NCBI GenBank assembly: GCA_963693365.1
Contig: CAVNZM010000001.1
Coordinates: 990,054-1,054,053, forward strand
Length of the DNA stretch: 64,000 nucleotides
Reading direction: 5' to 3'
Source of the DNA: Amoebidium appalachense
Lineage: Eukaryota; Protista; Ichthyosporea
This document shows positions 5,054 to 36,255 of this stretch, piece after piece. Numbering within the stretch: the first letter of the stretch is position 1; each line of letters starts with the position of its first letter. The notes beneath the pieces are model-generated. The model was not told the origin of the DNA and searched no databases. It worked only from the letters and a program-made list of their open reading frames with translations. Position numbers and translations under genes: made by a program.

Positions 5054-5182
5054 GCCCCATCCTTTAATTTTTATTTCTTCTTATTTATTTTTCACTTTCC
5101 GTTTCCGTTCTCAAGTGGGGAGTTTTTAGAGATTCAGTGGGGATATATGTGAGAACACAAACTTCAAGTCTTTAAGTGGGGA

Positions 5183-5598
5183 TGTTGAAGTACGTAGTTT
5201 GTACATGTGTAAGATCTTTCAGTTTGTGTTTATGATTCAGTTCATAGCATTAATGTAAAAATCACCCTCCTTGTTCGTAAAATTGTTAATCGATCTCAAA
5301 TATGTTTTCGTGTCTGTAATCGTGTCATATTGGCTCTAATCGTGTGTTGATCTAAAGATTAGAATATAGATATGTGCCTGCACGAATCCACTCAGTAAGA
5401 GTGCTCGTGCACATGTTTGTGTGTACATGAATATCTTATGTTGTAACTGTGCTATCGTGTTCATGCTTGTTGTTCTGTGTTCCTCTAATTCTCTCTTCTC
5501 TTCTTCTCTTTTCTTTCCTCTTTTTCTCTGGTGTTCATGTGTGTGATCACTGTTCTTTCTCACTAATATACGTTGAGTCAATTCGTGTGAAGTAGATG
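5183..5598 (+). repeat. Truncated 3' LTR of the A2 element
   Basis: PPT AAGTGGGGA immediately before TGTTGAAGTACG; diverged relative of LTR-A; interrupted by an LTR-A end fragment at 5599-5637. Confidence 0.8.
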
Positions 5599-5720
5599 TG
5601 TTAAATTGTATAAATATTTGGGATGAAAGCAGAGACAAACACATCTTCTGTGTTTAGCATCCACAGCCTTACAGCTATATATTCCTTTTCTTCTCCCTAT
5701 CTTTCCCTACGCCGGTCAGC

Positions 5721-6881: not shown

Positions 6882-6991
6882 TCTACGCGCACACCCACAC
6901 CCACAGATAGAACATAGGGGCTAGGAGCTAGGTTACACGGGTCCAGGGACACGGAGCTCGGGAAAGGGGCACTAGGGCTGAGTAAAAATTT

Positions 6992-7830
6992 TCGCAGGCC
7001 AACTACGGCGCCCGCGCGCGCCAAGAATAAATGTCCCTACACAAAGACGTTATTCTGGCCACTGCACATAATTTTCCTCCCCCCCCCTCATCCCTCGAGC
7101 CTCCCCCCCCTTACACTCACCTAGCACTCCCCTCCCCCCCCCTTCTTCTCACTCGGTGTACGCCCACACCCGCGCGTGCTCAGGCATCCCCTGCACAGGG
7201 CCCCGCTACCCTGCCTGCAAACCCTCCCTCGGGCCCAGCTGCCCTACTCTAACCCCCCGGGGCCCTGCTGCCCCTCCCCCCCCCCCTCCCCCCCCCCCCC
7301 CCCCCCCCGATGCCGGGATCTCCCCGAGGGTGCCCCACCCTTGCTAACCACCCCTTCCCCCGAGGCTCAGCCCCGGAGGCCCGCCCGCTGCCCCAGCACC
7401 ACGTTGACACCTCGCAGGCCAACTACGGCGCCCGCGCGCGCCAAGAATAAATGTCCCTACACAAAGACGTTATTCTGGCCACTGCACATAATTTTCCTCC
7501 CCCCCCCTCATCCCTCGAGCCTCCCCCCCTTACACTCACCTAGCACTCCCTCCCCCCCCCCTTCTTCTCACTCGGTGTACGCCCACACCCGCGCGTGCTC
7601 AGGCATCCCCTGCACAGGCCCCCGCTACCCTCCCTGCAAACCCTCCCTCGGGCCCAGCTGCCCTACTCTAACCCCCCCCGGGGCCCTGCTGCCCCTCCCC
7701 CCCCCCCTCCCCCCCCCCCCCCCCCCGATGCCGGGATCTCCCCGAGGGTGCCCCACCCTTGCTAACCACCCCTTCCCCCGAGGCTCAGCCCCGGAGGCCC
7801 GCCCGCTGCCCCAGCACCACGTTGACACCT
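6992..7830 (+). repeat. Two tandem copies (~420 bp) of the post-gag segment of YR copy 1
   Basis: TCGCAGGCCAACTACGGCG...GTTGACACCTC repeated at ~6992 and ~7412. Confidence 0.9.
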
Positions 7831-8173
7831 CCCGCCTCCGGGAGCTGCTGGCCCCCCAACCCAGCCCAATCATTCGCCGCGCAGCTCCTCCGTAACCAAC
7901 TTCCCCGGGCCCGACGACTCCGACCTTACCTGCAACCGGAGCCCTGCCCCTTCCCCTTCTGGGTCCACAAGTTCCTATTCCTTCCCCTGGGCTCACCCCC
8001 CCCCCCCCCCCCCCCGGCCCCCCCCCCAGATCTCCCCTTCCGGAGCAACGCTGGCCGATTGGCCCCCCACTTTGCTCCGGCCGAGCTGCTTCGTGCCACC
8101 ACTACCCTGCAGGAATGCCAGGCCCTGAGTCTCAACCTCGACTCTCGGGCCTTTTACTCCCGGGTGCAAAAAA

Positions 8174-9091
8174 GTGTTCATCGATTTCTGTGTGGCATCT
8201 CGGCTGCAATCCTCCTCCGGGTCCTCCCTCCCGGCCTCCCCACACACCGTGCAACTTTTTCTCGCCTGGTGTGCCCAACGAGGGGTACAGGCCTCTTCCT
8301 TAACCGGCTACAATTCGGCCATCACCAGGCTCCACCTCGACATGGGCCTCCCTGCTCCCTACCCCCACGACAAGTCTCTGGCCTGGTTCCTACGGGGGGT
8401 GGGCAGATGGCAGCTTTCTCACAACATCCGACCCCGTTCATCCACCAGGGAACCCCTCCTGCCCTCCCACCTCAGCCTACTCCATGGCCAGTGCCCCACC
8501 AAGGCCTCCTCGGCCAATATCCGGCTATGGACGGCCCTCATCGTCGGTTTCTGTGGTCTCCTCCGTTCAGGGGAATTTACCTCCAAGACCCTGACTTCTT
8601 TCGACCCGTCCCGTCACGTTAAACGGAAGGACGTGACCTTCAGCTACACCCCCACCGGTACTTTGTCCCATGCCACCCTCCACCTGCCAACCTCTAAGAC
8701 GGATGTACAGGCCCGCGGTGTCAACGTCACCCTAGCTGCCCTGCCCCTCACCCACTTCTCCCCAGCCCATCTCCTCCGGCAGTTCCTGGATACAACGTCC
8801 GGTCAACACGACAACCCCCTCTTCAGTCTCGGTGGCATCCCCTACACCAAGAGTGCTTTCTCTGCCGATTTCCGTGCCCTCCTCTCCCGGGCAGGCCTCT
8901 CACCCTCCCGGTTTGCCGGACACAGCCTCCGCATCGGGGGGGCCACAGCACTGGCTGAGGCCGGGGTCGACGACTCCCGGATCAAACAACTCGGCCGGTG
9001 GTCCTCCGACTGCTTCCTGATCTATACCCGACTTCGTCCGGCCTCCATTGCTGCCACCACCACACGTGTATTCGCCTCTATTCTTAAGTGA
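8174..9091 (+). CDS. Tyrosine recombinase of DIRS-type retroelement (true start probably upstream, across a frameshift near 8168)
   Basis: LLRSGE, SKTD, GHSLRIGGA, LGRWSSDCFLIY = R-K-HxxR-W-Y catalytic set. Confidence 0.92.
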   Translation: MFIDFCVASRLQSSSGSSLPASPHTVQLFLAWCAQRGVQASSLTGYNSAITRLHLDMGLPAPYPHDKSLAWFLRGVGRWQLSHNIRPRSSTREPLLPSHLSLLHGQCPTKASSANIRLWTALIVGFCGLLRSGEFTSKTLTSFDPSRHVKRKDVTFSYTPTGTLSHATLHLPTSKTDVQARGVNVTLAALPLTHFSPAHLLRQFLDTTSGQHDNPLFSLGGIPYTKSAFSADFRALLSRAGLSPSRFAGHSLRIGGATALAEAGVDDSRIKQLGRWSSDCFLIYTRLRPASIAATTTRVFASILK

Positions 9092-12000
9092 AACCTTTGG
9101 AGCAAGCATACTGCTCTCGTGCCGTGGTTTACAACCATTGCAGGTTCACTTTCGTCCAAGGGGATGTCCCCCTAGAGGCAACACACGTCCCGGAGTAGTT
9201 GTCATAGAGGTTTTATTTGTGGAAATTATTGACATAAATATTTTTTCTGGGTAAACACGTAGGATGGGTGTTCGATACCAACATAACCATGTAGGCTTCA
9301 TTTCGTGTTTTAGCAGTTAGCGGTTGGCTGCCCGCACACGGGCACCTATTAGCCAGTCAAAGCTATATATTCCTTTTCACCCACCCACCTACACCCACAC
9401 TCAACCCCCATTGATCCACACATATGTGCTGTTTTTTCACGGGGCGGAGACTTCCCCCGTTTTTTGGGCACATGGACCTCACGGATCAATAAAATTGATG
9501 ACTGGGGGCTTGCCGTGGTTTACAACCATTGCAGGTTCACTTTCGTCCAAGGGGATGTCCCCCTAGAGGCAACACACGTCCCGGAGTAGTTTTCATAGAA
9601 CAATAAGATGACTCACCAATAGTCGCGAGTGAGTACATTATTAAATTGTATAAGTATTTGGGATGTAAGCAGAGACACAGTGGTGCAGTGTGAAAACACT
9701 ACAGACACACACAACAACAAAACACGGAACGATCGGAGCAGTGTACACAACAGACATCAATGTTTAGACACGACTGAACTGAATTTATTCTGATCTTCGA
9801 ATAAATACCTGAAATTCCTCTAAGTCCAATCCATACATGATTTCCGACCAGTCGGAAATCAGATCTATCTCTAATAGAAACCAATCACTAAGAACCAATT
9901 GCTTTCAGAGAGATCTGGTACGCGGAGACGTACACGATAGGACACAGACACTAGTTAAGATCAACTCGTGTCATCATCAAGGAAGTTCTAACCTATGACA
10001 CACTGCAAAGACTCAGACAAATCACACTTAACCTTGATGATTGGTTAAAGCCCGGCAACACATGAAAACTAAAGTAAATTAATGAAGTCTAAACACACAT
10101 GCTATTCTAAGTGTAGCCTAAGTGTGTTACCGTCCAATCAACACATATTAAGTAACACAAATCTACCTAACATATATTAGTTTTGTTTGGATCCATGATT
10201 GAAAAACGATCGCTAGTTCTAGATGTGTGTAGGGAGCGTGCAAAAGGGCTGCATAACCTGTTAAAATTGCATAAATATTTGGGATGAAAGCAGAGACACA
10301 GTGGTGCAGTGTAAAAACACCACAGACACACACAACAACAAAACACGGAACGATCGGAGCAGTGTACACAACAGACAATCAATGTTTAGACACGACTGAA
10401 CTGAATTTATTCTGATCTTCGAATAAATACCTGAAATTCCTCTAAGTCCAATCCATACATGATTTCCGACCAGTCGGAAATCAGATCTATCTCTAATAGA
10501 AACCAATCACTAAGAACCAATTGCTTTCAGAGAGATCCGGTACGCGGAGACGTACACGATAGGACACAGACACTAGTTAAGATCAACTCGTGTCATCATC
10601 AAGGAAGTTCTAACCTATGACATACTGCAAAGACTCAGACATATCACACTTAACCTTGATGATTGGTTAAAGCCCGGCAACACATGAAAACTAAAGTAAA
10701 TTAATGAAGTCTAAACACACATGCTATTCTAAGTGTAGCCTAAGTGTGTTACCGTCCAATGAACACGTATTAAGTAACACAAATCTACCTAACATATATT
10801 AGTAGAAAAGAAATACACTTATACACATGAAGACAAGGAGAGAAAGAAAAGAAAATAAGGAAGGAGAAAGAGAAAGGAAAAGAGAGCACAGATCAACAAA
10901 CAAGATAGTAATAATATAACTATAACTAGGTTTTATTTGTGGAATTTATTGACATAAATATTTTTCTGGGTAAACACGTAGGATGGGTGTTCGATATTGA
11001 CATAACCATGTAGGCTTCGTTTCGTGTTTTAGCAGTTCGCGATTGGCCGCTCGCACACGGGCACCTATTAGCTAATCAAAACATCAGATTCCACATATCG
11101 CTAGACCGATTTTGATTGGTTCGATTCAGATTCACATATCACTGGATCGATTTTCAATTGGCTCAGGTCGGTAGGCTTAGGTATATAAGCAAGACAGTTT
11201 TCAGCAGATCAGCAAGCTACAAACACATCTTCTGTGTTGAGCACCTACAGCCCTTACGGCTATACATTTTCTTTTCACACTCCGTGACAACTCTTGACAC
11301 GAGCTTCTGTCACACCTTGACAATCGTGCCATCCTTGCAAGTTCAGCTTGCCCTCGTGTCCTCCTCGCAAGTTAGGCTTGCACTCCTGCCAGTTCCGTCC
11401 CGGTTAGGGCTAGTCGCCCTACAAGTTCCTCGACACTTCAAGAAGATTTCCTGACATGGTCCCTCACGCGCCGCGCCGCTGTGATCTAAGTCCCTACCAC
11501 TCGTCTAATTTCAAACCCCGTTTTCAATTCCGATGGCCTAGAATTTCACACCCCGCTTCGATCCGCATTGACTATCCTCGCTCATAGTCCTTGCCCGATT
11601 GCTCTTCTGAGTATTCAAATACGGTACTCCAATCGCGTCGCTTATGTTAAACCCAGTCAAAGCACCTTGTGCTTTCCTACTGTTCAGGAGTCCTGACCCC
11701 AAGTCCCTGCCAGAACAGCTTACCGTGTTCAACCCGCCTCCTTCCCTGTTTTCCCAACCTGTTTCCCGCCATGTCTCCCCCCACCATGACTTCACTGTCG
11801 ATGGATACCTCACATTCCATTGGCCTGCCCCGCATTCCAGCAGCATTTTTTTTTCCTCAGATCACAAGGCCAGCCTCGTCGAGATCTCAGCTACCCCAAA
11901 CCCTGCACGGCCCCAGTTCCCCTGCAGCTGTTCCCCCCCTGTTCCACCCGACCCCGGCCAGCTACACATGCTGCCAGGTCCGGTCGTTCCCATCCACGTT

Positions 12001-12679
12001 TCTGCCCAGCCAGCCTACCGTGCTGCCTGCCCATCCACGTTTCTGCCCAGCCAGCCTACCGTGCTGCCCGCCCCCGTTTCCAAAGCCCCTGGCCCGACCC
12101 AGTTAACCTTCTCCGTCCTGACTTACCTGCCTTTGACCCTGCCTCCGTCGTGCCTGATCCCAAAACCAATCCCGTCAAGCCCCTCCTCCCCTCCCTGTTC
12201 CGGCTTTCCCAGTAACCCCCGAGCAGCAAGAACCCTCAGGCTCGACGCCCCTCCAAACGAATTTCAAATTACGCGACCTCCGCAACCAGCTGCCCAACGC
12301 TCCCGCGGGCACTGACGCGCCTCCGGCGGCCCCCACCACCACGGACCCTCCAAGCCACTCTCCCCTCTACCCCTGAAGCCCCCCCTCAGGCCTGTCCCAT
12401 GTAGTACCCCAAGCCCGGCTGTGGTCTAAGACTTGATGGCTTCACACCGCCCCACAAGCCCGGCGGGGGACAAACCCCCAACCGCCCTAACCCGCACCCC
12501 GGCCTGGCAACACCGGCCCGATCGGTGGAGCTACCCGCCACGCACTACATGAATTTCCACATTTAAGGTCGGTCCTGCGCTAAGCAGCCCTGCCCCCTCT
12601 CCCACGTGTGCCCGCTCTGCTCTGGCACACACCCCCGCAAAGACTGCAAGCCTAATGCCTAGTCTACGCGCACACCCAC

Positions 12680-13735
12680 ACACACAGATAGAACATAGGG
12701 GCTAGGAGCTAGGATACACGGGTACAGGGACACGGAGCTCGGGAGCTCGGGTCACTAGGGCTAAGTACAAATTTTCGCAAGCCACCTACGGCGCCCGCGC
12801 GCGCCACAGAATACATGTCCCTACACAAAGACGTTATTCTGGCCACTGCACATAATTTTACTCCCCACCCATCCCACGAGCCTCCCCCCCCCTTACACTC
12901 ACCTAGCACCCCCCCCCCCCCCCCCCCCCCCCCCTTCTAACTCTGTGTCCACCCGCATCCCCGCGTGCTCGGGCATCCCCTGCACATGGCCCCGCTGTTC
13001 TGCCTGCAACCTCCCTCGGGCCCAGCTGCCCGCACACACAGATAGAACATAGGGGCTAGGTGCTAGGATACACGGGTACAGGGACACGGAGCTCGGGAGC
13101 ACGGGCCACTAGGGCTGAGTACAAATTTTTGCAGGCCACCTACGGCGCCCGCGCGCGCCACAGAATACATGTCCCTACACAAAGACGTTATTCTGGCCAC
13201 TGCACATAATTTTACTCCCCACCCATCCCACGAGCCTCCCCCCCCTTACACTCACCTAGCACTCCCCCCCCCCCCCCCCCCCCCCTTCTAACTCTGTGTC
13301 CGCCCGCATCCCCGCGTGCTCGGGCATCCCCTGCACATGGCCCCGCTGTTCTGCCTGCAACCTCCCTCGGGCCCAGCTGCCCGCACACACAAGATAGAAC
13401 ATAGGGGCTAGGAGCTAGGATACACGGGTACAGGGACACGGAGCTCGGGAGCACGGGCCACTAGGGCTGAGTACAAATTTTTTGCAGGCCACCTACGGCG
13501 CCCGCGCGCGCCACAGAATACATGTCCCTACACAAAAGACGTTATTCTGGCCACTGCACATAATTTTACTCCCCACCCATCCCACGAGCCTCCCCCCCCC
13601 CCCCCTTACACTCACCTAGCACTCCCTCCCCCCCCCCCTTCTAACTCTGTGTCCGCCCGCATCCCTGCGTGCTCGGGCATCCCCTGCACATGGCCCCGCT
13701 GCCCTGCCTGCAACCTCTCTCGGGCCCAGCTGCCC
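12680..13735 (+). repeat. Three tandem copies (~350 bp) of the post-gag segment of YR copy 2
   Basis: CACACAGATAGAACATAGGGGCTAGG...GGGCCCAGCTGCC repeated at ~12682, ~13034, ~13385. Confidence 0.9.
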
Positions 13736-13759
13736 TACTCTAAACCCCCCGGGGCCCTG

Positions 13760-13793
<34 letters not shown>

Positions 13794-14129
13794 CTGCCGG
13801 GGTCTCCCCGAGGGTGCCCCACCCTTGCTAACCACACCTTCCCCCGAGGCTCAGACCCGGAGGCCCAGCCCCCCCTCGGCCACCAGCGCGGCCACCCTCT
13901 TCCCGGACCAATTCCTTGCTGAGTTTCCGGTCCTCCGTTCCTCCCCCATCGGCGCCGTTACTACAAAAAACAAGCCCGGGACCCCAGCTCATTCTCGACG
14001 CAGGCCCCGGCTGCTACATGGCAGTGGCAGACGTGCAGGCTGCCTTCCGGCACATGCCCTCTCCCTTCCCCTGGGCTCAACCCCCCCTCCCCTCCCCCCC
14101 CCCCCCGATCTTCCCTTCCGGAGCAACGC

Positions 14130-15171
14130 TGGCAGATTGGCCCGGCCCCCCCACTTTGCTCCAGCCGTGCTGCTTCGAGCCACCACTACCCTGCAGGAGT
14201 GCCAGGCCCTGAGTCTCAACCTCGACTCTCGGGCCTTCTACTCCCGGGTGCAGAAAGTGTTCATCGATTTTTGTGGCATCTCGGCTGCCATCCTCCTCCG
14301 GGTCCTACCTCCCGGCCTCCCCACACACCGTGCAGCTCTTTCTTGCCTGGTGTGCCCAACAAGGGGTACAGGCCTCTTCCTTGGCCGGCTACAATTCGGC
14401 TATCACCAGACTCCACCTCGACATGGGACTTCCGGCTCCCTACCCCCACGACAAGTCTCTCGCCTGGTTCCTACAAGGGGTGGGCAGATGGCAGCTTTTC
14501 TCACAACATCCGACCCCGATCATCTCCCAGAGAACCCCTCCTGCCCTCCCACCTCGGCCTACTCCATGGCCAGTGCCCCACCCAGGCCTCCTCAGCCAAT
14601 CGCCGGCTTTGGACGGCCCTCATCGACGGTTTTTGTGGTCTCCTCCGTTCGTGGGAATTTACCTCCAAGACCCTGACTTCCTTCGACCCGTCCCGTCACG
14701 TGAAATGGAAGGACGTGACCTTCAGCTACACCCCCACCAGTACTTTGTCCCATGCCACCCTCCACCTGCCAACCTCCAAGATGGATGTACAGCCCTAAGT
14801 GTCAACGTCACTCTAGCTGCCCTGCCTCTCACCCACTTCTCCCCAGCCCATCTCCTCCGGCAGTTCCTGGATCCGACATCCGGTCAACCTGACGACCCCC
14901 TGTTCAGTCTCGGTGGCATTCCCTACACCAAGGGTGTTTTCTCTGACGACTTCCGTGCCCTCCTCTCCCGGGCGGGCCTCTCACCCTCCCGGTTTGCCGG
15001 CCACAGTCTCCGAATTGGGGGGGCCACAGCCCTGGCCGAGGCCGGGGTCGACAACTCCAGGATCCAACAACTTGGCAGATGATCTTCCGACTGTTCCCTG
15101 ATCTATACTCGACTTCGCCGGCCCCCATGGCTGCCACTAACAAACGTGTATTTGCCTCTATCCTTAAGTGA
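14130..15171 (+). pseudogene. Frameshifted tyrosine recombinase of YR copy 2
   Basis: Homologous to 8174-9091 with frameshifts and stops; GHSLRIGGA retained. Confidence 0.88.
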
Positions 15172-17899: not shown

Positions 17900-18676
17900 T
17901 GTCATCTTCCCATGATTACCGGCAAGACTTAGAAGTTGAGTTTTATATATGTTTATCAGTTTGTTGTAGTTTGTTTCCTTTTCCCTTTTCCTTTCTTCCT
18001 TTCTTTCTTTCCTTTCTGTTTCCGTGTGCACCGATATCTTAGATCTGTGTACACATCGAGATATTTAGCCCGCGCACACGTATTGTCGTTTGTGTCAATG
18101 TCTAAATATGTCATCCAATCAGATCTCGTTGTATTTTCCCAAATATAGTAACCTACATTCCTCATTAATTCTATTCGATTCCTTTCCCATTCCTTTTCCT
18201 TCTATTCCCACGACGTAGCATTGTTCTATGTTTCCCAACTATTAGGAATAATTATATTTAGACGTGTTATGATAAGAACATGTATAAATATATGATGTGA
18301 ACTAATAGATACATAAATGGTTTCATTTTGTTAAATGTTTCTGTACTTTTATGAGAAGATTACCTTCATTAGAGGATTGCGTTTTATCTTCTATGTGTCG
18401 ACAGGCATTTCGATCAATTTATTTTACCCTCATATTTTGCGTCTTTCTGATTGGAAAATAGAGTTTTCGTTCTTTTGATTGGTTTATCGATTTCACATTC
18501 CTGAGTATAAAAGGAACTTCACCTTGGAATAAATATCAAGCAGTCGAATTCATTTCCTATGGTCCCAGTAATCGTTCCACCTCTCCGGTTGTGTTTCTCC
18601 CGTGTGTCTCTGTGTTGTGTATAACATAACACCCATCTGTGCACTCTGCTTCCCCGTTTACCCACACAAAACAATA
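17900..18676 (+). repeat. Solo LTR, family B
   Basis: TGTCATC...ACAATA with TSD GTGGG (17895-99, 18677-81). Confidence 0.92.
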
Positions 18677-20110: not shown

Positions 20111-21129
20111 ACATTATTTGCTGCCGTGCAAGTGCCTAGGTAGATATTTCATTTTACACCCAAAAACGTTTGCTGTGGTCCACTTCCTTTATCACCCCTA
20201 GTAAAAAGAACAAAAAAGGTAGCCCGGAGGCATATAGTTGACCAATAACTTTGCACAGCAAACGAACACACTTGGGGGAGGGGGAAAGGGGGGGGGGGGG
20301 GGGGGTGCTGGCTATTCCAGTACTACTCTTTAATTTCGAATTTAAATGGTTTTTGCGTTCTCATCATAGTCTATCATATATGTTATTTCTTTGAATTCCC
20401 GTGTCTCTCTCTCCCTCTCTGGCCTCTTTACGGTGGTTGGTATGCATGTCGGTGGATATCGGTCACCTGGCCCGGCTTCCTAGATCTGGAAACAACACAG
20501 CGGCATGATGAGGAGTGCACGGAATTTACTTTGTCATTCTTTCCTGACATAGTTCGGTTTTATTTGTAGACATGTATTTATTGACATAAATATTTTTCTG
20601 GGTAAACACGTAGGATGGGTGTCCGATACTCAACATAACTATGTAGGCTTCGTTTCGTGTTTTAGCAGTTCGTGTTCGACTGCCCGCATACGGGCACCTA
20701 TTAGCCGATCAAAAACGTCAGATTCCACAGATCACTAGACCGAGTTTGATTGGCTCAGGATCAGATTTCACATAACACGAGATCGATTTTGATTGGCTCA
20801 GATCGGTAGCCTTAGGTATATAAGCACGACAGTTTTTTAGCAGATCAGCAAGCAACAGACACATCTTCTGTGTTTAGCACCTACAGCTTTACAGCTATAT
20901 TTTCTTTCATTCTCCCTATCTTTCCCTACGCCGGTCAGCATGCCGCCGGAAAAGCGCCAGGCCTCAGCCACCGCCCCTGCCGCGGCACCTAAGCGCCTGA
21001 CCCGCAGCGACCTCCGCCACAGGCTGACCAACGCTCCCGCGGGCACTGACTGTTGGAAGATGGTATCGTTATCCAGTCCGATAGCATGAATCAGATCATG
21101 ATCGGCTGGTGGCCTGCGAGATCTTAACC

Positions 21130-21202
21130 GATCTCGTAGCTCAGTTGGTAGAGCACTCGACCGGAGATAGAGGGGTCGCGGGTTCAAATCCCGTCGGGAT
21201 CA
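21130..21202 (+). tRNA. tRNA-like gene (tRNA-Phe-derived; anticodon loop CCGGAGA) in TRIM 5' LTR
   Basis: Acceptor GATCTCG/CGGGATC+A; D arm GCTC/GAGC; T arm GCGGG-TTCAAAT-CCCGT; A and B boxes; TTTTT 3 nt downstream. Confidence 0.85.
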
Positions 21203-21339
21203 TCTTTTTCTCATCCTCTTCTCGCTGGGGTAAAAGCCAGCACGCCTTTACTGGCGTCATCACAACCATCGGCAGTGGTTAGGTTGTGATCTCAAGACTA
21301 GCAAGATCGCTAGTCTCTGCACCAGGACAAAATCCAAAA

Positions 21340-21357
21340 TGGTAGCACGAACAGGGG
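21340..21357 (+). promoter_or_regulatory. Primer binding site, probably for the 3' end of initiator tRNA-Met
   Basis: TGGTAGCACGAACAGGGG directly after LTR; implies primer ...TGCTA-CCA (A1:U72 type, as in TGGTAGC iMet PBSs). Confidence 0.75.
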
Positions 21358-21499
21358 TTCAGTGGGGACTGAGGGGGCAGTCCACCCTAACCTGATTCTG
21401 CGATTCGTCCTGAGTGGGGATGTTGGAAGATGGTATCGTTATCCAGTCCGATAGCATGAATCAGATCATGATCGGCTGGTGGCCTGCGAGATCTTAACC

Positions 21500-21572
21500 G
21501 ATCTCGTAGCTCAGTTGGTAGAGCACTCGACCGGAGATAGAGGGGTCGCGGGTTCAAATCCCGTCGGGATCA
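21500..21572 (+). tRNA. Identical tRNA-like gene in TRIM 3' LTR
   Basis: Same sequence as 21130-21202. Confidence 0.85.
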
Positions 21573-22832
21573 TCTTTTTCTCATCCTCTTCTCGCTGGGG
21601 TAAAAGCCAGCACGCCTTTACTGGCGTCATCACAACCATCGGCAGTGGTTAGGTTGTGATCTCAAGGCTAGCAAGATCGCTAGTCTCTGCACCAGGACAA
21701 AATCCAAAACTGACGCGCCTCCGGAGGCCCTAACCGCTACGGACCATCCGGCTACTCGCCACAGGCTGACCAACGCTCCCGCGGGCACTGACGCGCCTCC
21801 CGAGGCCCTAACCGCTACGGACCCTCCGGCTACTCTCCCCTCTACTCCTGAAGTCCCTCCTCAGGACCCGCCATCCCCGCCAATGACTTCTCAGGACGCC
21901 GTCCTTGCCGCCCTCACCGCCCTCAGCACCCAGATGGCCGGCGTCCTGGCCGCTCTCACCAACCGCGACCCTCCCGCGCCCCCAGCCACACCCCCCGCAC
22001 CCGTGGAGGTTTCCCCGGGGCTGCATCTCGGCCCTGACCTGGACCTACCTGCCCTGCCCGCGCCCCCCATTACAGGTGAGAACACTGGCGACATTCAGCC
22101 AGGCACACTGCCGCTTCCCCCCGCGGATGTGCTGGCAGATTTGCGCGCCAATCGCTTCGTCGACCTGTATAAGTTCACCCCCGCAGCCCTCCTGGCCCCA
22201 TCCAAGAAAGATCAGCAGCTGCGCATGACCGACGACGGCAGCATCGAGACTTTTCGCAATGACAAACCCGTCCCCCTGCGTTCCCTCGTCATTTGGATCC
22301 AAGCTTGGACCCATTACATGGCCGCCAAGCATCACCTCGACCTCCCCACGGACAAGGACGTATTTTGGACTCAGCACATCACTCGCCTCAGCACCTGATA
22401 CCCGTAGGCCCAGATCCACAACTACGACGTGTACGCCCGTACAGTTGCCCACCAGCAGGGTCGGGCCCCGATCGAGTGTCCCAACGGATCTCCTCCTGCC
22501 ACCCACTCTGCTCATCCCGGACGCATGTCAGCGCTGCGGCTTCCCCCGGCCACCCCAGCGCGGCCTGCCCCATGTACCCCAAGCCCGGCTGTGGTCTTGA
22601 TGGCTTCGAGCCGCCCCACAAGCCCGGCGGGGGACAAACCCCCAACCGCTCTGGCCCGCAACCCGGCCCGGCACCACCGGCCCGACCCGTGGATCTACCC
22701 GCGACACACTGCAGGAATTTCCACATCAACGGTCGGTCCTGCGCTAAGCAGCCCTGCCCCTTCTCCCACGTGTGCCCGCTCTGCTCTGGCACACACCCCC
22801 GCAAAGACTGCAAGCACAATGCCTAGTCTACG

Positions 22833-24618: not shown

Positions 24619-25365
24619 CTACACTACACTGGCTGTGCTGTTGCTTGTCGTGCCAAGCAGGAGAAAGGCAACAAGAGTGTGCAATTTGCACTCATCTCCT
24701 CCACCGGCACACCCGAACGTGACGACCCCGTCTGGGACAGTGCTTGTAATGCACACATCTGCCCCGTCAAGGAGTATTTCTCCTCCCTTACCCCGTGTCC
24801 TCCCACCCCCATTCACGGCCTCGGCACCGTCAATGCCACACACCGTGGCATCATCAACCTGACACTGCACTACAACGGCCACTCAACCCCGTGCAGCATC
24901 AATGCTTTCTACGTATCCGAGTCACCGTCTTTCCTCGTGTCTACCTCTTTACTCCCCCCCCATCCCACGAGCCTCCCCCTCCTTACACTCACCTAGCACT
25001 CCCTCCCCCCCCCCCCCCCCCCCCCCCTTCTTCTAACTCCACCCACACCCCCGCGTGCTCGGGCATCCCCTGCACAGGGCCCCGCTGCCCTCCCTGCAAA
25101 CCCTCCCTCGGGTCCAGCTGCCCTACTCTAACCCCCCGGGGCCCTGCGCCCCCCCCCCCCCCCCCCCCCCCCCCCCGATGCCGGGATCTCCCCGAGGGTG
25201 CCCCACCCTTGCTAACCACCCCTTCCCCCGAGGCTCAGACCCAGAGGCCCGCCGCTGCCCCAGCACCACGTTGACACCTCCCGCCTCCGGGAGCTGCTGG
25301 CCCCCTACCCAGACCAATCATTCGCCGCGCAGCTCCTCCACGATGTCGAATTCGGTGTCAACATC

Positions 25366-26270
25366 TGTTGTTTTGTATGGGTCTAAGGGAGCAGAGTGCA
25401 CAGAGGTGTCATGTAAAACACGACTAACACATTAATGAGAGGGCAATCGGAGTTGTTCACGAGACATTGAAAGATTCAAACAACAACTGATTCTTTATTG
25501 TGCCCTCGGTTCCTTTTGTACTTGCGACTTATCATCTTATCACAACTAAAGAGGGAGAACCAATCGGTCCTATCAGAAGATAGAAAAAAACATTCCGACA
25601 GAGCATACGCATTCCAACTGATTAAACTAAAGTTTAGAAACTCTTACTTAAATAAATTAAGTAATTATACATCTAGTCACTATTAACTCACATCTATATT
25701 TATGTTCGTCTCTATAAAGAAACTTATTTAAATACATATATTTCCTAATAGTCGACACTCTCAAAGTGAAGACACTTTGCAATAAACCGAATTCCATATA
25801 TATCTATTGTCCAATCACAACACACATATATTAATAGACAGGAATGCACAACACGATCTACAGATGTACTCGCTCGCGACTATTGGCGAGCCATCCTTTT
25901 GAGAACAAAACTAAGCCATTTTGAAATAAAGGAAAGACAACGAGTGTGGCTAGCCAATCACGCTACCTCTCAGATAAACAGAGGAGAGCAAACAGAAATA
26001 AAATACAATAAGTTCTTATCAGGCAAGAGAGCCAGGTGTGCACAGATCTACAGATATCTGTGCTCACAGAAACAAAGGAGAGAGAGATACGGGGGGGGGG
26101 GGGGGGGGGGGGGGAGAGAGAGAGAGAGAGAGAGAGGGAGAGAAAGAAAGAAAAGAGAAAAGAGAAAAGGAAGAGAGCACAAAGAAGGAAAGCAGACACG
26201 AATACAAACAAGCTAAGACACTTACATACTTCAAGGCTCTTGCTGTCATACATGGTGACGTATTCCAACA
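25366..26270 (-). repeat. 3' LTR of family C copia (copies 29531-30432, 33695-34599)
   Basis: TGTTGGAATACG...AAAACAACA on minus, preceded by PPT GAGTGGGGA. Confidence 0.9.
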
Positions 26271-26734
26271 TCCCCACTCAAGGGGTTGAAGTTTGTGTTC
26301 TCGTGCCTGTTGATGTGACGGTAGATGGGGTCCAAACACAGGAGGGGCCGTCACACTCAAGTCTCCCCACTCGAGGATGCAAACCGAAGATCCTTGAGGT
26401 GGGAACTAAAAAATAAAGTATGAAACTTGACAAAAACATATCATACTTGTAAGATGTGTATGACCATGTATTTTTAGTTGAATGCAAAAATAAAAAGGCA
26501 TTATTTCAAACAAACGTTCCAAAAACCCAAAAGTAGCTCGCAACCTCCTTAGATGAGGTCCAAACACAGGAGGGGCCGTCTCACTCAAGTTTCCCCACTC
26601 GAGGATGCAAACCGAAGATCCTTGAGGTGGGAAGGAGAGAATCAAAACAGAAGAGGCACACAACGACGGTTGCCTCGGAAGACTCGGAACAATAAATCAT
26701 GGTGGTTATCGTCGATATATATAGAGAGAGGAAA

Positions 26735-27450
26735 TGACATATACTAATCCGTCTCAGCAGATTAGCCTAAGTCCACGATAAAGATCGGGGGGGGGGGGGG
26801 GGGGGGTGGCCCGGGTCCACAGATCATCAAGATCAAGTCCGGGGCCTCAAGATAGCTGTACAGCTGCGTGCATCTTGCATCTGCCGGCGCAGGGCATTGG
26901 ACCAAGTCAGCCGGGGCAGCCGACCAATAGAATTCTAATTAGTGTGTAGGATAGATCGTAGGAGGACTTAGGAATGTGGTTGTTCGGGCAGAAGCTCTTT
27001 TGTAAGTATTGGCAAGGTTTGATAGTGTATGTTGCCAAACGTATTTATATATTTAGATGTAGAGGAAAGGGGGGGAGGGAGGGGGGGGGAGGATAGTATG
27101 AAATGTAGATTTAGACTCTGCGGTGCCACTAGGGGGAGGGTGAGGGGTGAGACATCATGGATAAATATATTAGTTGAGTAGATCGACTTAGCTCGTGCAG
27201 GCGCACGATAAAAGTAGATCGGAATGTTTGGAATGTGGCATCGTAGGGGCCCAGGTGATGATGATCTTTGAGGGCACGGCCTTGATGGCCTGAGTTGTAA
27301 CTTAAGTCTCATTCCGTACGGATCTAAGTTTGCCCGTCGGAGCCTGGTCTGAATAAACTTTACCGTTTTTCCGTACACGTTCGTTCCTTTTCGTGTGTGT
27401 ACACTTAGTAGAGTGCCGCGTCTCTAGTACATATACATTAGGATACGACA
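26735..27450. repeat. Solo LTR-like insertion, family D (copies 30897-31616, 35064-35777)
   Basis: TG...CA, 716 bp, TSD GGAAA (26730-34, 27451-55); absent from the homologous 3' UTR at ~41700. Confidence 0.82.
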
Positions 27451-27759
27451 GGAAACACTGGTGTATGTGTGACGTGTTGGTGGCTAATGTTTTATACTGG
27501 GGACCACCCAGGTAAACACAAGGCATGAACATCTTGTGGACTCTTTTATAGACTGGTTGTCAACCAGTAAAGACACGGGGAAGGTGCATGCCGTGGACTA
27601 GGTTTAGACTGGCAGTCAACCAGCTCGCAAGGCTATAGATAATTATTTATACTGGGTCGCCATCCCAGTTCGACATATATATAAAGTCGAATATAGAAGA
27701 AGACCAATATATATGGTGGGATATGAATATAAATAAACGACGGACGGTGGAGAATAATC

Positions 27760-27928
27760 CCCAGAGCAATGGTGGACTGATTGTCACAGTACACGGGGGT
27801 GGGCTCGGTCATGGGGTAGCCCAGTTCCTTGAGTAGATCACGGTGCCAGACAACATCTTGCACGGCAGCATTGAGGGCCAGGAGCTCGGCCTCACAGGTG
27901 GAAGTTGCAGTGATCGTCTGCAGCTTGG
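27760..27928 (-). pseudogene. Copia RNase H fragment of family C (in each array unit)
   Basis: KLQTITATSTCEAEL...YCDNQSTIAL. Confidence 0.88.
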
Positions 27929-29311
27929 TGTCATCTTCACTTGATTCTCGGCAAGACTTAGAAGTTGAGTTTTGTATTTGTTTATTAGTTTGTTGTAGTT
28001 TGTTTCCTTTTCCTTTCTTCCTTTCTTTCTTTCCTTTCTGTTTCCGTGTACACCGATATCTTAGATCTGTGTACGTATCGACATACTTAGCTGGCGCACA
28101 CGTATTGTCGTTTGTGTCAAATCTATATATGTCATCCAATCAAATCTCGTTTGTATTTTCCCAAATATAGTAACTTACATTCCTTTCCCATTCCTTTCTC
28201 ACGACGTAGCATTGTGCTATGTTCTCCAACTATTAGGAATACTTAATATTTTATTAGAAGTATCTTTCATTAGAGGATTGTATTCTATATTCTATGTGTC
28301 GACAGACATTTTGATCGATATATTTTACACTCATAGTTTTCGTCTTTCTGATTGGAAAATAGAGTTTTCGTTCTTTTGATTGGTTTATCGTTTTCACATT
28401 TTCACGTCTGCTCCGACATTGAACGTCTCTAGATCTGCTCCGACTACTGGATGAACAACAAGGCCTACCCGTCCTTCAACCAGCTCATCAGTGACATCCG
28501 AGGAGCTGAAATCCGTGCCGGCCTAATCGACGCAGGCAGTCCTCTTCGAGCACTTCAGAGCCGAGTGCTTCCCCCCGGTGACCTCCGTAACCGTATCCCT
28601 CGACGTGAGCATACACCTCACCGTTCCCCGTCCCGTTCCCGTGATCCTCCTCCGTCCTCCAAGTCACCCGGCCCCCGTTCAACTTCCCCTTACCATCGTG
28701 GTAACAGGGACAACCGTAACCGACAGCACAACACCAAGAAGGTGGAGTGTTCCTACTGCCATGAGCACCACCACATCACAGCATGCCCGGAGCCTGGCTG
28801 TGCTGTTGCTTGTCGTGCCAAGCAGGAGAAAGGCAACAAGAGTGTGCAATTTGCACTCATCTCCTCCACCGGCACACCCGAACGTGACGACCCCGTCTGG
28901 GACAGTGCTTGTAATGCACACATCTGCCCCGTCAAGGAGTATTTCTCCTCCCTTACCCCGTGTCCTCCCACCCCCATTCACGGCCTCGGCACCGTCAATG
29001 CCACACACCGTGGCATCATCAACCTGACACTGCACTACAACGGCCACTCAACCCCGTGCAGCATCAATGCTTTCTACGTATCCGAGTCACCGTCTTTCCT
29101 CGTGTCTACCTCTTTACTCCCCCCCATCCCACGAGCCTCCCCCTCCTTACACTCACCTAGCACTCCCCCTCCCCCCCCCCCCCCCCCCCCTTCTTCTAAC
29201 TCCACCCACACCCCCGCGTGCTCGGGCATCCCCTGCACAGGGCCCCGCTGCCCTCCCTGCAAACCCTCCCTCGGGTCCAGCTGCCCTACTCTAACCCCCC
29301 GGGGCCCTGCG

Positions 29312-29342
<31 letters not shown>

Positions 29343-32300
29343 ATGCCGGGATCTCCCCGAGGGTGCCCCACCCTTGCTAACCACCCCTTCCCCCGAGGCT
29401 CAGACCCAGAGGCCCGCCGCTGCCCCAGCACCACGTTGACACCTCCCGCCTCCGGGAGCTGCTGGCCCCCTACCCAGACCAATCATTCGCCGCGCAGCTC
29501 CTCCACGATGTCGAATTCGGTGTCAACATCTGTTGTTTTGTATGGGTCTAAGGGAGCAGAGTGCACAGAGGTGTCATGTAAAACACGACTAACACATTAA
29601 TGAGAGGGCAATCGGAGTTGTTCACGAGACATTGAAAGATTCAAACAACAACTGATTCTTTATTGTGCCCTCGGTTCCTTTTGTACTTGCGACTTATCAT
29701 CTTATCACAACTAAAGAGGGAGAACCAATCGGTCCTATCAGAAGATAGAAAAAAACATTCCGACAGAGCATACGCATTCCAACTGATTAAACTAAAGTTT
29801 AGAAACTCTTACTTAAATAAATTAAGTAATTATACATCTAGTCACTATTAACTCACATCTATATTTATGTTCGTCTCTATAAAGAAACTTATTTAAATAC
29901 ATATATTTCCTAATAGTCGACACTCTCAAAGTGAAGACACTTTGCAATAAACCGAATTCCATATATATCTATTGTCCAATCACAACACACATATATTAAT
30001 AGACAGGAATGCACAACACGATCTACAGATGTACTCGCTCGCGACTATTGGCGAGCCATCCTTTTGAGAACAAAACTAAGCCATTTTGAAATAAAGGAAA
30101 GACAACGAGTGTGGCTAGCCAATCACGCTACCTCTCAGATAAACAGAGGAGAGCAAACAGAAATAAAATACAATAAGTTCTTATCAGGCAAGAGAGCCAG
30201 GTGTGCACAGATCTACAGATATCTGTGCTCACAGAAACAAAGGAGAGAGAGATACGGGGGGGGGGGGGGGGGGGGGAGAGAGAGAGAGAGAGAGAGAGGG
30301 AGAGAAAGAAAGAAAAGAGAAAAGAGAAAAGGAAGAGAGCACAAAGAAGGAAAGCAGACACGAATACAAACAAGCTAAGACACTTACATACTTCAAGGCT
30401 CTTGCTGTCATACATGGTGACGTATTCCAACATCCCCACTCAAGGGGTTGAAGTTTGTGTTCTCGTGCCTGTTGATGTGACGGTAGATGGGGTCCAAACA
30501 CAGGAGGGGCCGTCACACTCAAGTCTCCCCACTCGAGGATGCAAACCGAAGATCCTTGAGGTGGGAACTAAAAAATAAAGTATGAAACTTGACAAAAACA
30601 TATCATACTTGTAAGATGTGTATGACCATGTATTTTTAGTTGAATGCAAAAATAAAAAGGCATTATTTCAAACAAACGTTCCAAAAACCCAAAAGTAGCT
30701 CGCAACCTCCTTAGATGAGGTCCAAACACAGGAGGGGCCGTCTCACTCAAGTTTCCCCACTCGAGGATGCAAACCGAAGATCCTTGAGGTGGGAAGGAGA
30801 GAATCAAAACAGAAGAGGCACACAACGACGGTTGCCTCGGAAGACTCGGAACAATAAATCATGGTGGTTATCGTCGATATATATAGAGAGAGGAAATGAC
30901 ATATACTAATCCGTCTCAGCAGATTAGCCTAAGTCCACGATAAAGATCGGGGGGGGGGGGGGGGGGGGGGGGTGGCCCGGGTCCACAGATCATCAAGATC
31001 AAGTCCGGGGCCTCAAGATAGCTGTACAGCTGCGTGCATCTTGCATCTGCCGGCGCAGGGCATTGGACCAAGTCAGCCGGGGCAGCCGACCAATAGAATT
31101 CTAATTAGTGTGTAGGATAGATCGTAGGAGGACTTAGGAATGTGGTTGTTCGGGCAGAAGCTCTTTTGTAAGTATTGGCAAGGTTTGATAGTGTATGTTG
31201 CCAAACGTATTTATATATTTAGATGTAGAGGAAAGGGGGGGAGGGAGGGGGGGGGAGGATAGTATGAAATGTAGATTTAGACTCTGCGGTGCCACTAGGG
31301 GGAGGGTGAGGGGTGAGACATCATGGATAAATATATTAGTTGAGTAGATCGACTTAGCTCGTGCAGGCGCACGATAAAAGTAGATCGGAATGTTTGGAAT
31401 GTGGCATCGTAGGGGCCCAGGTGATGATGATCTTTGAGGGCACGGCCTTGATGGCCTGAGTTGTAACTTAAGTCTCATTCCGTACGGATCTAAGTTTGCC
31501 CGTCGGAGCCTGGTCTGAATAAACTTTACCGTTTTTCCGTACACGTTCGTTCCTTTTCGTGTGTGTACACTTAGTAGAGTGCCGCGTCTCTAGTACATAT
31601 ACATTAGGATACGACAGGAAACACTGGTGTATGTGTGACGTGTTGGTGGCTAATGTTTTATACTGGGGACCACCCAGGTAAACACAAGGCATGAACATCT
31701 TGTGGACTGATTTATAGACTGGTTGTCAACCAGTAAAGACACGGGGAAGGTGCATGCCGTGGACTAGGTTTAGACTGGCAGTCAACCAGCTCGCAAGGCT
31801 ATAGATAATTATTTATACTGGGTCGCCATCCCAGTTCGACATATATATAAAGTCGAATATAGAAGAAGACCAATATATATGGTGGGATATGAATATAAAT
31901 AAACGACGGACGGTGGAGAATAATCCCCAGAGCAATGGTGGACTGATTGTCACAGTACACGGGGGTGGGCTCGGTCATGGGGTAGCCCAGTTCCTTGAGT
32001 AGATCACGGTGCCAGACAACATCTTGCACGGCAGCATTGAGGGCCAGGAGCTCGGCCTCACAGGTGGAAGTTGCAGTGATCGTCTGCAGCTTGGTGTCAT
32101 CTTCACTTGATTCTCGGCAAGACTTAGAAGTTGAGTTTTGTATTTGTTTATTAGTTTGTTGTAGTTTGTTTCCTTTTCCTTTCTTCCTTTCTTTCTTTCC
32201 TTTCTGTTTCCGTGTACACCGATATCTTAGATCTGTGTACGTATCGACATACTTAGCTGGCGCACACGTATTGTCGTTTGTGTCAAATCTATATATGTCA

Positions 32301-33474
32301 TCCAATCAAATCTCGTTTGTATTTTCCCAAATATAGTAACTTACATTCCTTTCCCATTCCTTTCTCACGACGTAGCATTGTGCTATGTTCTCCAACTATT
32401 AGGAATACTTAATATTTTATTAGAAGTATCTTTCATTAGAGGATTGTATTCTATATTCTATGTGTCGACAGACATTTTGATCGATATATTTTACACTCAT
32501 AGTTTTCGTCTTTCTGATTGGAAAATAGAGTTTTCGTTCTTTTGATTGGTTTATCGTTTTCACATTTTCACGTCTGCTCCGACATTGAACGTCTCTAGAT
32601 CTGCTCCGACTACTGGATGAACAACAAGGCCTACCCGTCCTTCAACCAGCTCATCAGTGACATCCGAGGAGCTGAAATCCGTGCCGGCCTAATCGACGCA
32701 GGCAGTCCTCTTCGAGCACTTCAGAGCCGAGTGCTTCCCCCCGGTGACCTCCGTAACCGTATCCCTCGACGTGAGCATACACCTCACCGTTCCCCGTCCC
32801 GTTCCCGTGATCCTCCTCCGTCCTCCAAGTCACCCGGCCCCCGTTCAACTTCCCCTTACCATCGTGGTAACAGGGACAACCGTAACCGACAGCACAACAC
32901 CAAGAAGGTGGAGTGTTCCTACTGCCATGAGCACCACCACATCACAGCATGCCCGGAGCCTGGCTGTGCTGTTGCTTGTCGTGCCAAGCAGGAGAAAGGC
33001 AACAAGAGTGTGCAATTTGCACTCATCTCCTCCACCGGCACACCCGAACGTGACGACCCCGTCTGGGACAGTGCTTGTAATGCACACATCTGCCCCGTCA
33101 AGGAGTATTTCTCCTCCCTTACCCCGTGTCCTCCCACCCCCATTCACGGCCTCGGCACCGTCAATGCCACACACCGTGGCATCATCAACCTGACACTGCA
33201 CTACAACGGCCACTCAACCCCGTGCAGCATCAATGCTTTCTACGTATCCGAGTCACCGTCTTTCCTCGTGTCTACCTCTTTACTCCCCCCCATCCCACGA
33301 GCCTCCCCCTCCTTACACTCACCTAGCACTCCCTCCCCCCCCCCCCCCCCCCCTTCTTCTAACTCCACCCACACCCCCGCGTGCTCGGGCATCCCCTGCA
33401 CAGGGCCCCGCTGCCCTCCCTGCAAACCCTCCCTCGGGTCCAGCTGCCCTACTCTAACCCCCCGGGGCCCTGCG

Positions 33475-33506
<32 letters not shown>

Positions 33507-36255
33507 ATGCCGGGATCTCCCCGAGGGTGCCCCACCCTTGCTAACCACCCCTTCCCCCGAGGCTCAGACCCAGAGGCCCGCCGCTGCCCCAGCACCACGT
33601 TGACACCTCCCGCCTCCGGGAGCTGCTGGCCCCCTACCCAGACCAATCATTCGCCGCGCAGCTCCTCCACGATGTCGAATTCGGTGTCAACATCTGTTGT
33701 TTTGTATGGGTCTAAGGGAGCAGAGTGCACAGAGGTGTCATGTAAAACACGACTAACACATTAATGAGAGGGCAATCGGAGTTGTTCACGAGACATTGAA
33801 AGATTCAAACAACAACTGATTCTTTATTGTGCCCTCGGTTCCTTTTGTACTTGCGACTTATCATCTTATCACAACTAAAGAGGGAGAACCAATCGGTCCT
33901 ATCAGAAGATAGAAAAAAACATTCCGACAGAGCATACGCATTCCAACTGATTAAACTAAAGTTTAGAAACTCTTACTTAAATAAATTAAGTAATTATACA
34001 TCTAGTCACTATTAACTCACATCTATATTTATGTTCGTCTCTATAAAGAAACTTATTTAAATACATATATTTCCTAATAGTCGACACTCTCAAAGTGAAG
34101 ACACTTTGCAATAAACCGAATTCCATATATATCTATTGTCCAATCACAACACACATATATTAATAGACAGGAATGCACAACACGATCTACAGATGTACTC
34201 GCTCGCGACTATTGGCGAGCCATCCTTTTGAGAACAAAACTAAGCCATTTTGAAATAAAGGAAAGACAACGAGTGTGGCTAGCCAATCACGCTACCTCTC
34301 AGATAAACAGAGGAGAGCAAACAGAAATAAAATACAATAAGTTCTTATCAGGCAAGAGAGCCAGGTGTGCACAGATCTACAGATATCTGTGCTCACAGAA
34401 ACAAAGGAGAGAGAGATACGGGGGGGGGGGGGGGGGGGGGGGGAGAGAGAGAGAGAGAGAGAGAGGGAGAGAAAGAAAGAAAAGAGAAAAGAGAAAAGGA
34501 AGAGAGCACAAAGAAGGAAAGCAGACACGAATACAAACAAGCTAAGACACTTACATACTTCAAGGCTCTTGCTGTCATACATGGTGACGTATTCCAACAT
34601 CCCCACTCAAGGGGTTGAAGTTTGTGTTCTCGTGCCTGTTGATGTGACGGTAGATGGGGTCCAAACACAGGAGGGGCCGTCACACTCAAGTCTCCCCACT
34701 CGAGGATGCAAACCGAAGATCCTTGAGGTGGGAACTAAAAAATAAAGTATGAAACTTGACAAAAACATATCATACTTGTAAGATGTGTATGACCATGTAT
34801 TTTTAGTTGAATGCAAAAATAAAAAGGCATTATTTCAAACAAACGTTCCAAAAACCCAAAAGTAGCTCGCAACCTCCTTAGATGAGGTCCAAACACAGGA
34901 GGGGCCGTCTCACTCAAGTTTCCCCACTCGAGGATGCAAACCGAAGATCCTTGAGGTGGGAAGGAGAGAATCAAAACAGAAGAGGCACACAACGACGGTT
35001 GCCTCGGAAGACTCGGAACAATAAATCATGGTGGTTATCGTCGATATATATAGAGAGAGGAAATGACATATACTAATCCGTCTCAGCAGATTAGCCTAAG
35101 TCCACGATAAAGATCGGGGGGGGGGGGGGGGGGGGTGGCCCGGGTCCACAGATCATCAAGATCAAGTCCGGGGCCTCAAGATAGCTGTACAGCTGCGTGC
35201 ATCTTGCATCTGCCGGCGCAGGGCATTGGACCAAGTCAGCCGGGGCAGCCGACCAATAGAATTCTAATTAGTGTGTAGGATAGATCGTAGGAGGACTTAG
35301 GAATGTGGTTGTTCGGGCAGAAGCTCTTTTGTAAGTATTGGCAAGGTTTGATAGTGTATGTTGCCAAACGTATTTATATATTTAGATGTAGAGGAAAGGG
35401 GGGAGGGAGGGGGGGGAGGATAGTATGAAATGTAGATTTAGACTCTGCGGTGCCACTAGGGGGAGGGTGAGGGGTGAGACATCATGGATAAATATATTAG
35501 TTGAGTAGATCGACTTAGCTCGTGCAGGCGCACGATAAAAGTAGATCGGAATGTTTGGAATGTGGCATCGTAGGGGCCCAGGTGATGATGATCTTTGAGG
35601 GCACGGCCTTGATGGCCTGAGTTGTAACTTAAGTCTCATTCCGTACGGATCTAAGTTTGCCCGTCGGAGCCTGGTCTGAATAAACTTTACCGTTTTTCCG
35701 TACACGTTCGTTCCTTTTCGTGTGTGTACACTTAGTAGAGTGCCGCGTCTCTAGTACATATACATTAGGATACGACAGGAAACACTGGTGTATGTGTGAC
35801 GTGTTGGTGGCTAATGTTTTATACTGGGGACCACCCAGGTAAACACAAGGCATGAACATCTTGTGGACTGATTTATAGACTGGTTGTCAACCAGTAAAGA
35901 CACGGGGAAGGTGCATGCCGTGGACTAGGTTTAGACTGGCAGTCAACCAGCTCGCAAGGCTATAGATAATTATTTATACTGGGTCGCCATCCCAGTTCGA
36001 CATATATATAAAGTCGAATATAGAAGAAGACCAATATATATGGTGGGATATGAATATAAATAAACGACGGACGGTGGAGAATAATCCCCAGAGCAATGGT
36101 GGACTGATTGTCACAGTACACGGGGGTGGGCTCGGTCATGGGGTAGCCCAGTTCCTTGAGTAGATCACGGTGCCAGACAACATCTTGCACGGCAGCATTG
36201 AGGGCCAGGAGCTCGGCCTCACAGGTGGAAGTTGCAGTGATCGTCTGCAGCTTGG

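Follow-up and report, generated by a model that had tools for sequence, protein, structure and literature searches.

A Helenus-type TRIM with a tRNA-like unit in each LTR: a new family and host record from the ichthyosporean Amoebidium appalachense

Miniature LTR retrotransposons (TRIMs) with tRNA-derived sequence in their LTRs were described as Helenus (TRIMp3) from fungi, animals and Selaginella (Kojima 2024, Biology 13:119, PMC10886601). Helenus is defined by its architecture and not as a sequence family, and it is thought to have had several origins (PMC10886601). The fungal members have target site duplications (TSDs) of 5 bp and Copia helpers (PMC10886601). The TSDs of Helenus are 4 bp in animals and 5 bp in fungi and the plant, and its use of RNA polymerase III (Pol III) has not yet been validated (PMC10886601). 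In this work, an element of Amoebidium appalachense, a single-celled relative of animals, was analysed. An initial annotation had suggested that its architecture might be undescribed, which could not be maintained, since the design had already been named Helenus/TRIMp3 in Kojima 2024 (PMC10886601). The TRIM is real, young and present in RNA, and it represents a new family and a new host record (Ichthyosporea) of the design described in 2024, not a new kind of element.

The element was located at 21051-21709 of the window (the whole 64-kb stretch of DNA that was analysed), and its 659 bp were made up of two LTRs of 289 bp and an internal core of 81 bp (21340-21420), which begins with TGGTAGCA and terminates with GAGTGGGGA (Table 1). 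The LTRs were identical at 288 of 289 positions, the sole difference being A21297 versus G21667. The TSD was CTGAC (5 bp), and empty sites with a single CTGAC were found three times in the 64-kb window, ending at 5831, 12316 and 21792, the last of which is a tandem duplicate within the host element that the TRIM entered. The existence of these empty sites fixed the boundaries of the TRIM. The LTR termini were TG...AA, with a 3' end of CCAAAA and not CA, and the junction of the polypurine tract (PPT) with the 3' LTR was GAGTGGGGA/TGTTGGAA. Judged by its motif, the PBS TGGTAGCA is likely of the initiator-Met tRNA 3'-end type. The longest ATG-started ORF on both strands was only 42 aa, in accordance with the description of the element as non-coding, and no further copy or solo LTR was found elsewhere in the 64-kb window. 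The structure first annotated, from the 289-bp LTRs with one mismatch and the 81-bp core to the PBS, PPT, TSD and empty sites, proved to be exact. On the side of structure, the reading as a non-autonomous LTR element with a captured, putative tRNA-type Pol III promoter and mobilisation by LTR machinery held as well.

Table 1. Features of the TRIM and of its insertion site, with positions in the window
Feature	Position	Strand	Remark
TRIM target: inferred gag-like 5' ORF in a multi-copy repeat	20940..22830	+	ORF interrupted after codon 37
Left TSD CTGAC	21046..21050	+	Single CTGAC at three empty sites
5' LTR, 289 bp, TG...AA	21051..21339	+	7-bp terminal inverted repeat, one mismatch at second-last base
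10-nt inverted repeat of tRNA nt 1-10	21114..21123; again 21484-21493	+	Predicted pairing with acceptor 5' strand in RNA
tRNA-like unit, 5' LTR	21130..21202	+	ARAGORN; Rfam RF00005 57.4 bits; anticodon arm degenerate
A box; B box	21137-21148; 21181-21191	+	Within tRNA-like unit of 5' LTR
T5 tract, Pol III terminator-like	21205..21209	+	Sequence anatomy
Four adjacent predicted hairpins, U5-like part; candidate packaging/priming structure	21224..21316	+	Folding versus shuffles
PBS TGGTAGCA	21340..21347	+	Abuts 5' LTR; judged by motif
12-mer with second PPT-like motif	21357..21368	+	Exact match in Copia-family 3' UTR of window
PPT GAGTGGGGA	21412..21420	+	Abuts 3' LTR; same junction at 8 Copia-type LTR starts
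3' LTR, 289 bp	21421..21709	+	tRNA-like unit 21500-21572, T5 21575-21579
Right TSD CTGAC	21710..21714	+	Pairs with 21046-21050

Copia elements (RVT_2, rve, gag_pre-integrs) and tyrosine-recombinase repeats lie nested in the window, and the ORF interrupted by the TRIM is the first one of such a tyrosine-recombinase repeat. A sister copy of the TRIM target was found at 5796-6887, which matched 21757-22832 at 92.7%, and a Phage_integrase match at 8129-9088 marked the tyrosine recombinase ORF. In the repeats at 5658-9091 and 11611-15082, the first ORF was gag-like and another one encoded a tyrosine recombinase; no match to a reverse transcriptase (RT) was obtained for them among the 33 of 60 window ORFs of at least 150 aa that were scanned, and the 5' part of the tyrosine-recombinase repeats exceeded a depth of 10^5 in DNA run X3. 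These repeats possibly represent an abundant non-autonomous DIRS/Ngaro-like family. At 24629-37442, nested Copia fragments formed a 4.16-kb block that was repeated head to tail with 99.6% identity, which is either a recent tandem duplication or an assembly artefact. An expressed host gene of four exons was located on the minus strand (56916-60282), which matched Galactosyl_T (GT31) once clearly and once weakly. Its three GT-AG introns were confirmed by RNA contigs, diverged paralogues were present in the DNA run, and the one database match was an Amoebidium parasiticum protein with 98% identity over 76% of the queried piece, which runs parallel to the translated exons of the gene. Two high-depth repeats (56675-56970 and 61020-61800), which were present in RNA runs, flank this gene, and one of them falls in its 3' transcript region.

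Two tRNAs were called by ARAGORN in the whole 64-kb window, one per LTR, and exactly two units were likewise detected with Rfam RF00005 (gathering score 29) in the 64 kb. The T5 tracts, which start 2 nt past the tRNA, were the only plus-strand T runs of at least four in the element. In this way, ARAGORN, Rfam and the sequence anatomy agreed on the 73-nt tRNA-like unit with A box, B box and T5 that had been annotated in each LTR. The description of this unit as a whole tRNA gene was accurate as to its full length and not as to an intact gene, given the degeneration of the anticodon arm. Intact parts were the A box, the B box and the stems of the acceptor, D and T arms, and the anticodon arm was damaged by C33 and a G-A stem mismatch; a GGA anticodon was combined with a 5-nt variable loop. 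When the 73-mer was folded alone, the stem pairing probabilities were 0.97 for the acceptor, 1.0 for the D and 0.89 for the T stem, and 0.0 for the canonical anticodon stem. The isotype assigned by ARAGORN was tRNA-Ser(GGA). Serine tRNAs have a long variable arm, and U33 is invariant in tRNAs; the GGA anticodon together with the short variable loop is therefore in conflict with a serine identity. Judged from these features, the unit is probably non-functional and not used in translation.

As for the parent isotype, tRNA-Trp may be regarded as a lead. In the accessible parts of PMC10886601, the last 16 nt of the unit agreed by eye with the 3' end of Apis tRNA-Trp at 14 of 16 positions (Fig. S2), and the 24 nt around the D arm were, by eye, those of the bivalve Helenus-2_TeGr. 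The T-arm pattern was found at nine loci in metagenome contigs, with 28-41 of 73 letters identical to the unit, and ARAGORN called tRNA-Glu at five of the nine and made no call at four, which was uninformative on the parent tRNA. In run X1, a 515-nt contig matched 21537-21579 only (from tRNA position 38 to the T5) with 2 differences; it stopped at the T5 and continued in the 5' direction as unrelated sequence. This break falls at 37/38, where introns of tRNAs usually sit; the contig may stem from an intron-bearing parent tRNA gene or from a sister family whose anticodon loop is expanded.

The distribution of the element was then evaluated in sequencing runs. At least half of its sampled words were present in 20 of the 24 runs listed, none of which is on record as RNA. 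In DNA run X3, the TRIM core had a depth of 5127-8650, and the control, four long, difference-free contigs of the host-gene region, had a depth of 33.6-42. The ratio of about 120-260-fold indicates an order of magnitude, as tandem arrays also raise depth. Run X1, which is labelled DNA, covered 10 of 30 control bins and was excluded from the depth ratios. The read depth suggests TRIM copies of the order of 10^2, depth not being a copy number. The family is homogeneous. The variation within the element over four runs consisted of five variable sites and one 4-base insertion, and no variant at 2% or more was detected inside the tRNA unit or at the AA end in any of the four. In these runs, the tRNA proved to be a feature of the whole family rather than a one-off SINE insertion. 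At LTR position 33, A was present in both LTRs of this copy, and C made up about 97% of the depth in X3 (11253 of 11594 depth units at 21083, and 7745 of 7923 at 21453); a shared A would be expected if both LTRs had been rebuilt from one RNA.

In run X11, a 400-nt contig began exactly at the LTR start and ended 30 nt inside the second LTR, and these ends fit several flanks joining there, the flanks themselves not being seen in the contig. No flanks at the LTR ends were found among the contig loose ends listed for the runs, the exact LTR-start pattern matched nowhere in metagenome or viral contigs, and no second flanked TRIM copy with its own TSD was recovered from the window or from the metagenome and viral contigs. 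The RNA nature of runs X2 and X20 was judged from splice joints. The three GT-AG introns of the window gene were skipped in X2 and had no cover, which identified X2 as RNA. The TRIM was present there as one 400-nt contig, in which a 370-nt unit of LTR and core closed on itself at a depth of 105, and the flanks adjoining the TRIM had no cover in X2. Since X2 contains the whole LTR and core unit, the T5 tract is crossed by RNA, and so are the core and U3. As the contigs carry no strand, start, end or level, Pol II or copies embedded in transcripts of the host may be the source of this RNA.

The TRIM is likely copied in trans by Copia retrotransposons of the host. A 5-bp TSD is common to it and to Copia-type LTRs of the window. 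The junction AGTGGGGA/TGT gave 13 matches in the window against 0.09 expected, which comprised the TRIM itself, eight Copia-type LTR starts (tandem duplicates included), three sites in apparent Copia coding sequence and one upstream motif. One Copia-type family had 18 nt across the PPT/LTR junction in common with the TRIM. The 12-mer of the core recurred just upstream of the PPT in a Copia family, and 0 of 2000 random 60-mers of the window shared 12 nt. A single Copia PBS, GGTTATGCAGCCC (3 places), came into view in the window, and it differs from that of the TRIM. A full-length, young Copia, whose different PBS speaks against a direct partnership with the TRIM, was found on the minus strand (54741-48015), with LTRs of 917 and 913 bp (906 of 913 identical) and the TSD AAAAG. 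Its RT-RNase H had at most 39% identity in the best 120 of 1443 matches, which is uninformative on the host lineage, and its PBS resembled the start of most rust-fungus Helenus cores in the accessible part of the published sequences. Two solo Copia-type LTRs (1579-2313 and 17900-18676) had TG...TA ends and perfect 5-bp TSDs. Given these TA-ended LTRs and the TA-ended LTRs of published Helenus, the AA end of the TRIM is less odd.

The folding of the LTR in RNA was predicted as well. The 137 nt after the tRNA formed four hairpins (z -4.45), and 0 of 200 shuffles folded as well. In the 3' copy, the 10-nt inverted repeat of U3 was predicted to pair with tRNA nt 1-10 at a probability of about 1.0. 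The significance of this repeat was modest, with a 10-helix arising in 240 of 20000 shuffles and the acceptor stem lowered as far in 5 of 300. Acceptor stem pairing likewise dropped below 0.1 with 42% of random upstream or downstream sequences, so that the cloverleaf is weak in the folding model. A downstream "refolding switch" past the terminator was rejected, because shuffled tails broke the acceptor stem as often (198/300 and 158/300). As a hypothesis only, the inverted repeat might protect the RNA from tRNA-processing nucleases.

Taking these results together, we consider the element to be a TRIM of Helenus design whose tRNA-like unit likely acts as an internal Pol III promoter, and which a Copia-type element likely reverse-transcribes and integrates in trans. 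Pol III would start at the tRNA-like unit of the 5' LTR, and the first T5 would stop most of the transcripts. Some would continue past it, along U5, the core and U3, as far as the second T5, giving an RNA of 450 nt with the tRNA as terminal redundancy (R). The PBS would be primed by the host initiator tRNA-Met and the second strand by the PPT, and Copia would supply the RT, RNase H and integrase, the last of which would make the 5-bp duplication.

Alternatively, Pol II might make the genomic RNA of the same TRIM, starting in U3 or entering from neighbours by read-through; the main role of the A and B boxes would then be the binding of TFIIIC and the maintenance of an open or unmethylated LTR, with only a short dead-end RNA made by Pol III. 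The T5 lying only 2 nt past the tRNA, which should stop most Pol III transcripts, speaks for Pol II, and so does the presence of the whole unit in the spliced-mRNA run X2 at a depth near that of the host gene (105 vs 109); multi-unit read-through transcripts are also known from Cassandra, as far as the accessible part of PMC7215508 goes. However, U3 is merely 79 nt long, and unrelated Helenus families in the accessible part of the published set repeatedly show a T tract behind the tRNA, which fits the use of both as start and stop signals. Synthesis of the genomic RNA by Pol II appears rather unlikely. It is unlikely, too, that the TRIM is an independently born, active Pol III LTR element, in which the U3 inverted repeat would unfold the 3' cloverleaf and so prevent cutting by RNase P, the hairpin-rich U5 would recruit the Copia particle, and the integrase would accept TG...AA. 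If true, this masking of the tRNA would offer a direct system in which a possible Pol III synthesis of Helenus across its own terminator could be studied.

A SINE might also have inserted into a normal TRIM LTR and now persist as a mere passenger, forming the 3' part of the LTR that is headed by the tRNA and includes the hairpins and the A-rich end, in agreement with the SINE insertion that Kojima proposed as the origin of Helenus (PMC10886601) and with the A-rich LTR end CAAAATCCAAAA, which is not CA. This is very improbable, as the T5 right behind the head would cut off the body of the SINE and, of the direct repeats around the tRNA, the best has 6 nt and does not lie at the ends; moreover, the contrast between intact promoter boxes, D, T and acceptor stems and a damaged anticodon arm suggests selection on the promoter parts. 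Dispersal of a working tRNA-Ser(GGA) by the element, or priming by the tRNA that it carries, is hardly credible in spite of the ARAGORN call and the folding of three stems in the 73-mer, given C33 in place of U33, the G-A mismatch, the absent anticodon-stem pairing and the lack of a long variable arm. Self-priming was rejected separately, as the 3' end of the unit with CCA matched only TGGT (4 nt) of the PBS.

The Amoebidium element extends the known range of tRNA-promoter TRIMs from fungi, animals and a lycophyte to Ichthyosporea. This record lends support either to LTR parasites having taken up Pol III promoters convergently and more than once or to an old origin in opisthokonts. Being young, homogeneous and present in RNA, the TRIM is suited to the mapping of transcript ends for Pol III use and terminator read-through. 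Copies of the order of 10^2 would also inflate the tRNA-Ser(GGA) calls in the Amoebidium genome. No tRNA-bearing TRIM from ichthyosporeans was found among the papers listed in literature searches, and the family may already be contained in Repbase, in Dfam or in the supplementary data of the Amoebidium paper. Within their accessible parts, PMC12859917, PMC13570524 and PMC11244446 contained no ichthyosporean Helenus, and the main text of PMC11244446 gave 0 matches for "tRNA" and "Copia". The words "Amoebidium" and "Ichthyosporea" had 0 matches in the supplement of PMC10886601. When ten motifs of the TRIM were compared with that supplement by exact text, by which line-split motifs are missed, six had 0 matches, five family-specific ones among them, and the other four, which are short or generic, matched in unrelated context only.

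Among other known systems, the Cassandra TRIMs of land plants likewise have, in each LTR, signals of a Pol III promoter and terminator, but these belong to 5S rRNA sequence with boxes A and C, whereas the Amoebidium TRIM has a tRNA (accessible parts of PMC7215508 and PMC10886601). No Rfam match to 5S rRNA, the trait of Cassandra and Ajax, was obtained in the TRIM at the gathering score or at E up to 10. No ribozyme, the trait of retrozymes, was among the eight Rfam matches at E up to 10, and no other Rfam family came near its gathering score. SINE2 elements share the tRNA head with A and B boxes and the non-coding nature. They differ in that the unit of the TRIM sits in two LTRs, that the 5-bp TSD surrounds the whole element, and that the tRNA is without a tail or TSD of its own.

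The closest resemblance was to Helenus, and within it to the fungal families Helenus-5_PSt, -3_PTrit, -1_CCin and -1_AmAr in the accessible part of PMC10886601. Three differences were recorded. The host is an ichthyosporean, while Table 1 and Table S1 of PMC10886601 contain fungi, animals and Selaginella only. In the accessible sequences of that paper, the LTRs of rust-fungus Helenus mostly end a few tens of bases past the T tract, unlike the Amoebidium TRIM, in which the tRNA lies in the middle of the LTR with 137 nt of hairpins behind it. As to the AA end, 0 of 13 "ccaaaa" matches in the accessible part of the supplement ended a published Helenus LTR, and TA ends occur there. The shared features are two LTRs, a short core, a size below 1000 bp without protein, the length of 659 bp being within the range of 311-1263, and an LTR tRNA-like sequence that has an A box (TRGCY, YGG) and a B box (GGTTC) and precedes a T tract. 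The PBS after the 5' LTR, the PPT before the 3' LTR, the TGTT start, and a tRNA unit that is usually non-functional with a conflict of isotype are common to both as well. With fungal Helenus, the TRIM further shares the 5-bp TSD, the likely Copia helper and the T tract behind the tRNA, and seven of the 11 matches of TGGTAGCA in the supplement of PMC10886601 begin internal portions, all of them of fungal Helenus. The defining features of Helenus that can be read from a single copy were found in the Amoebidium TRIM.
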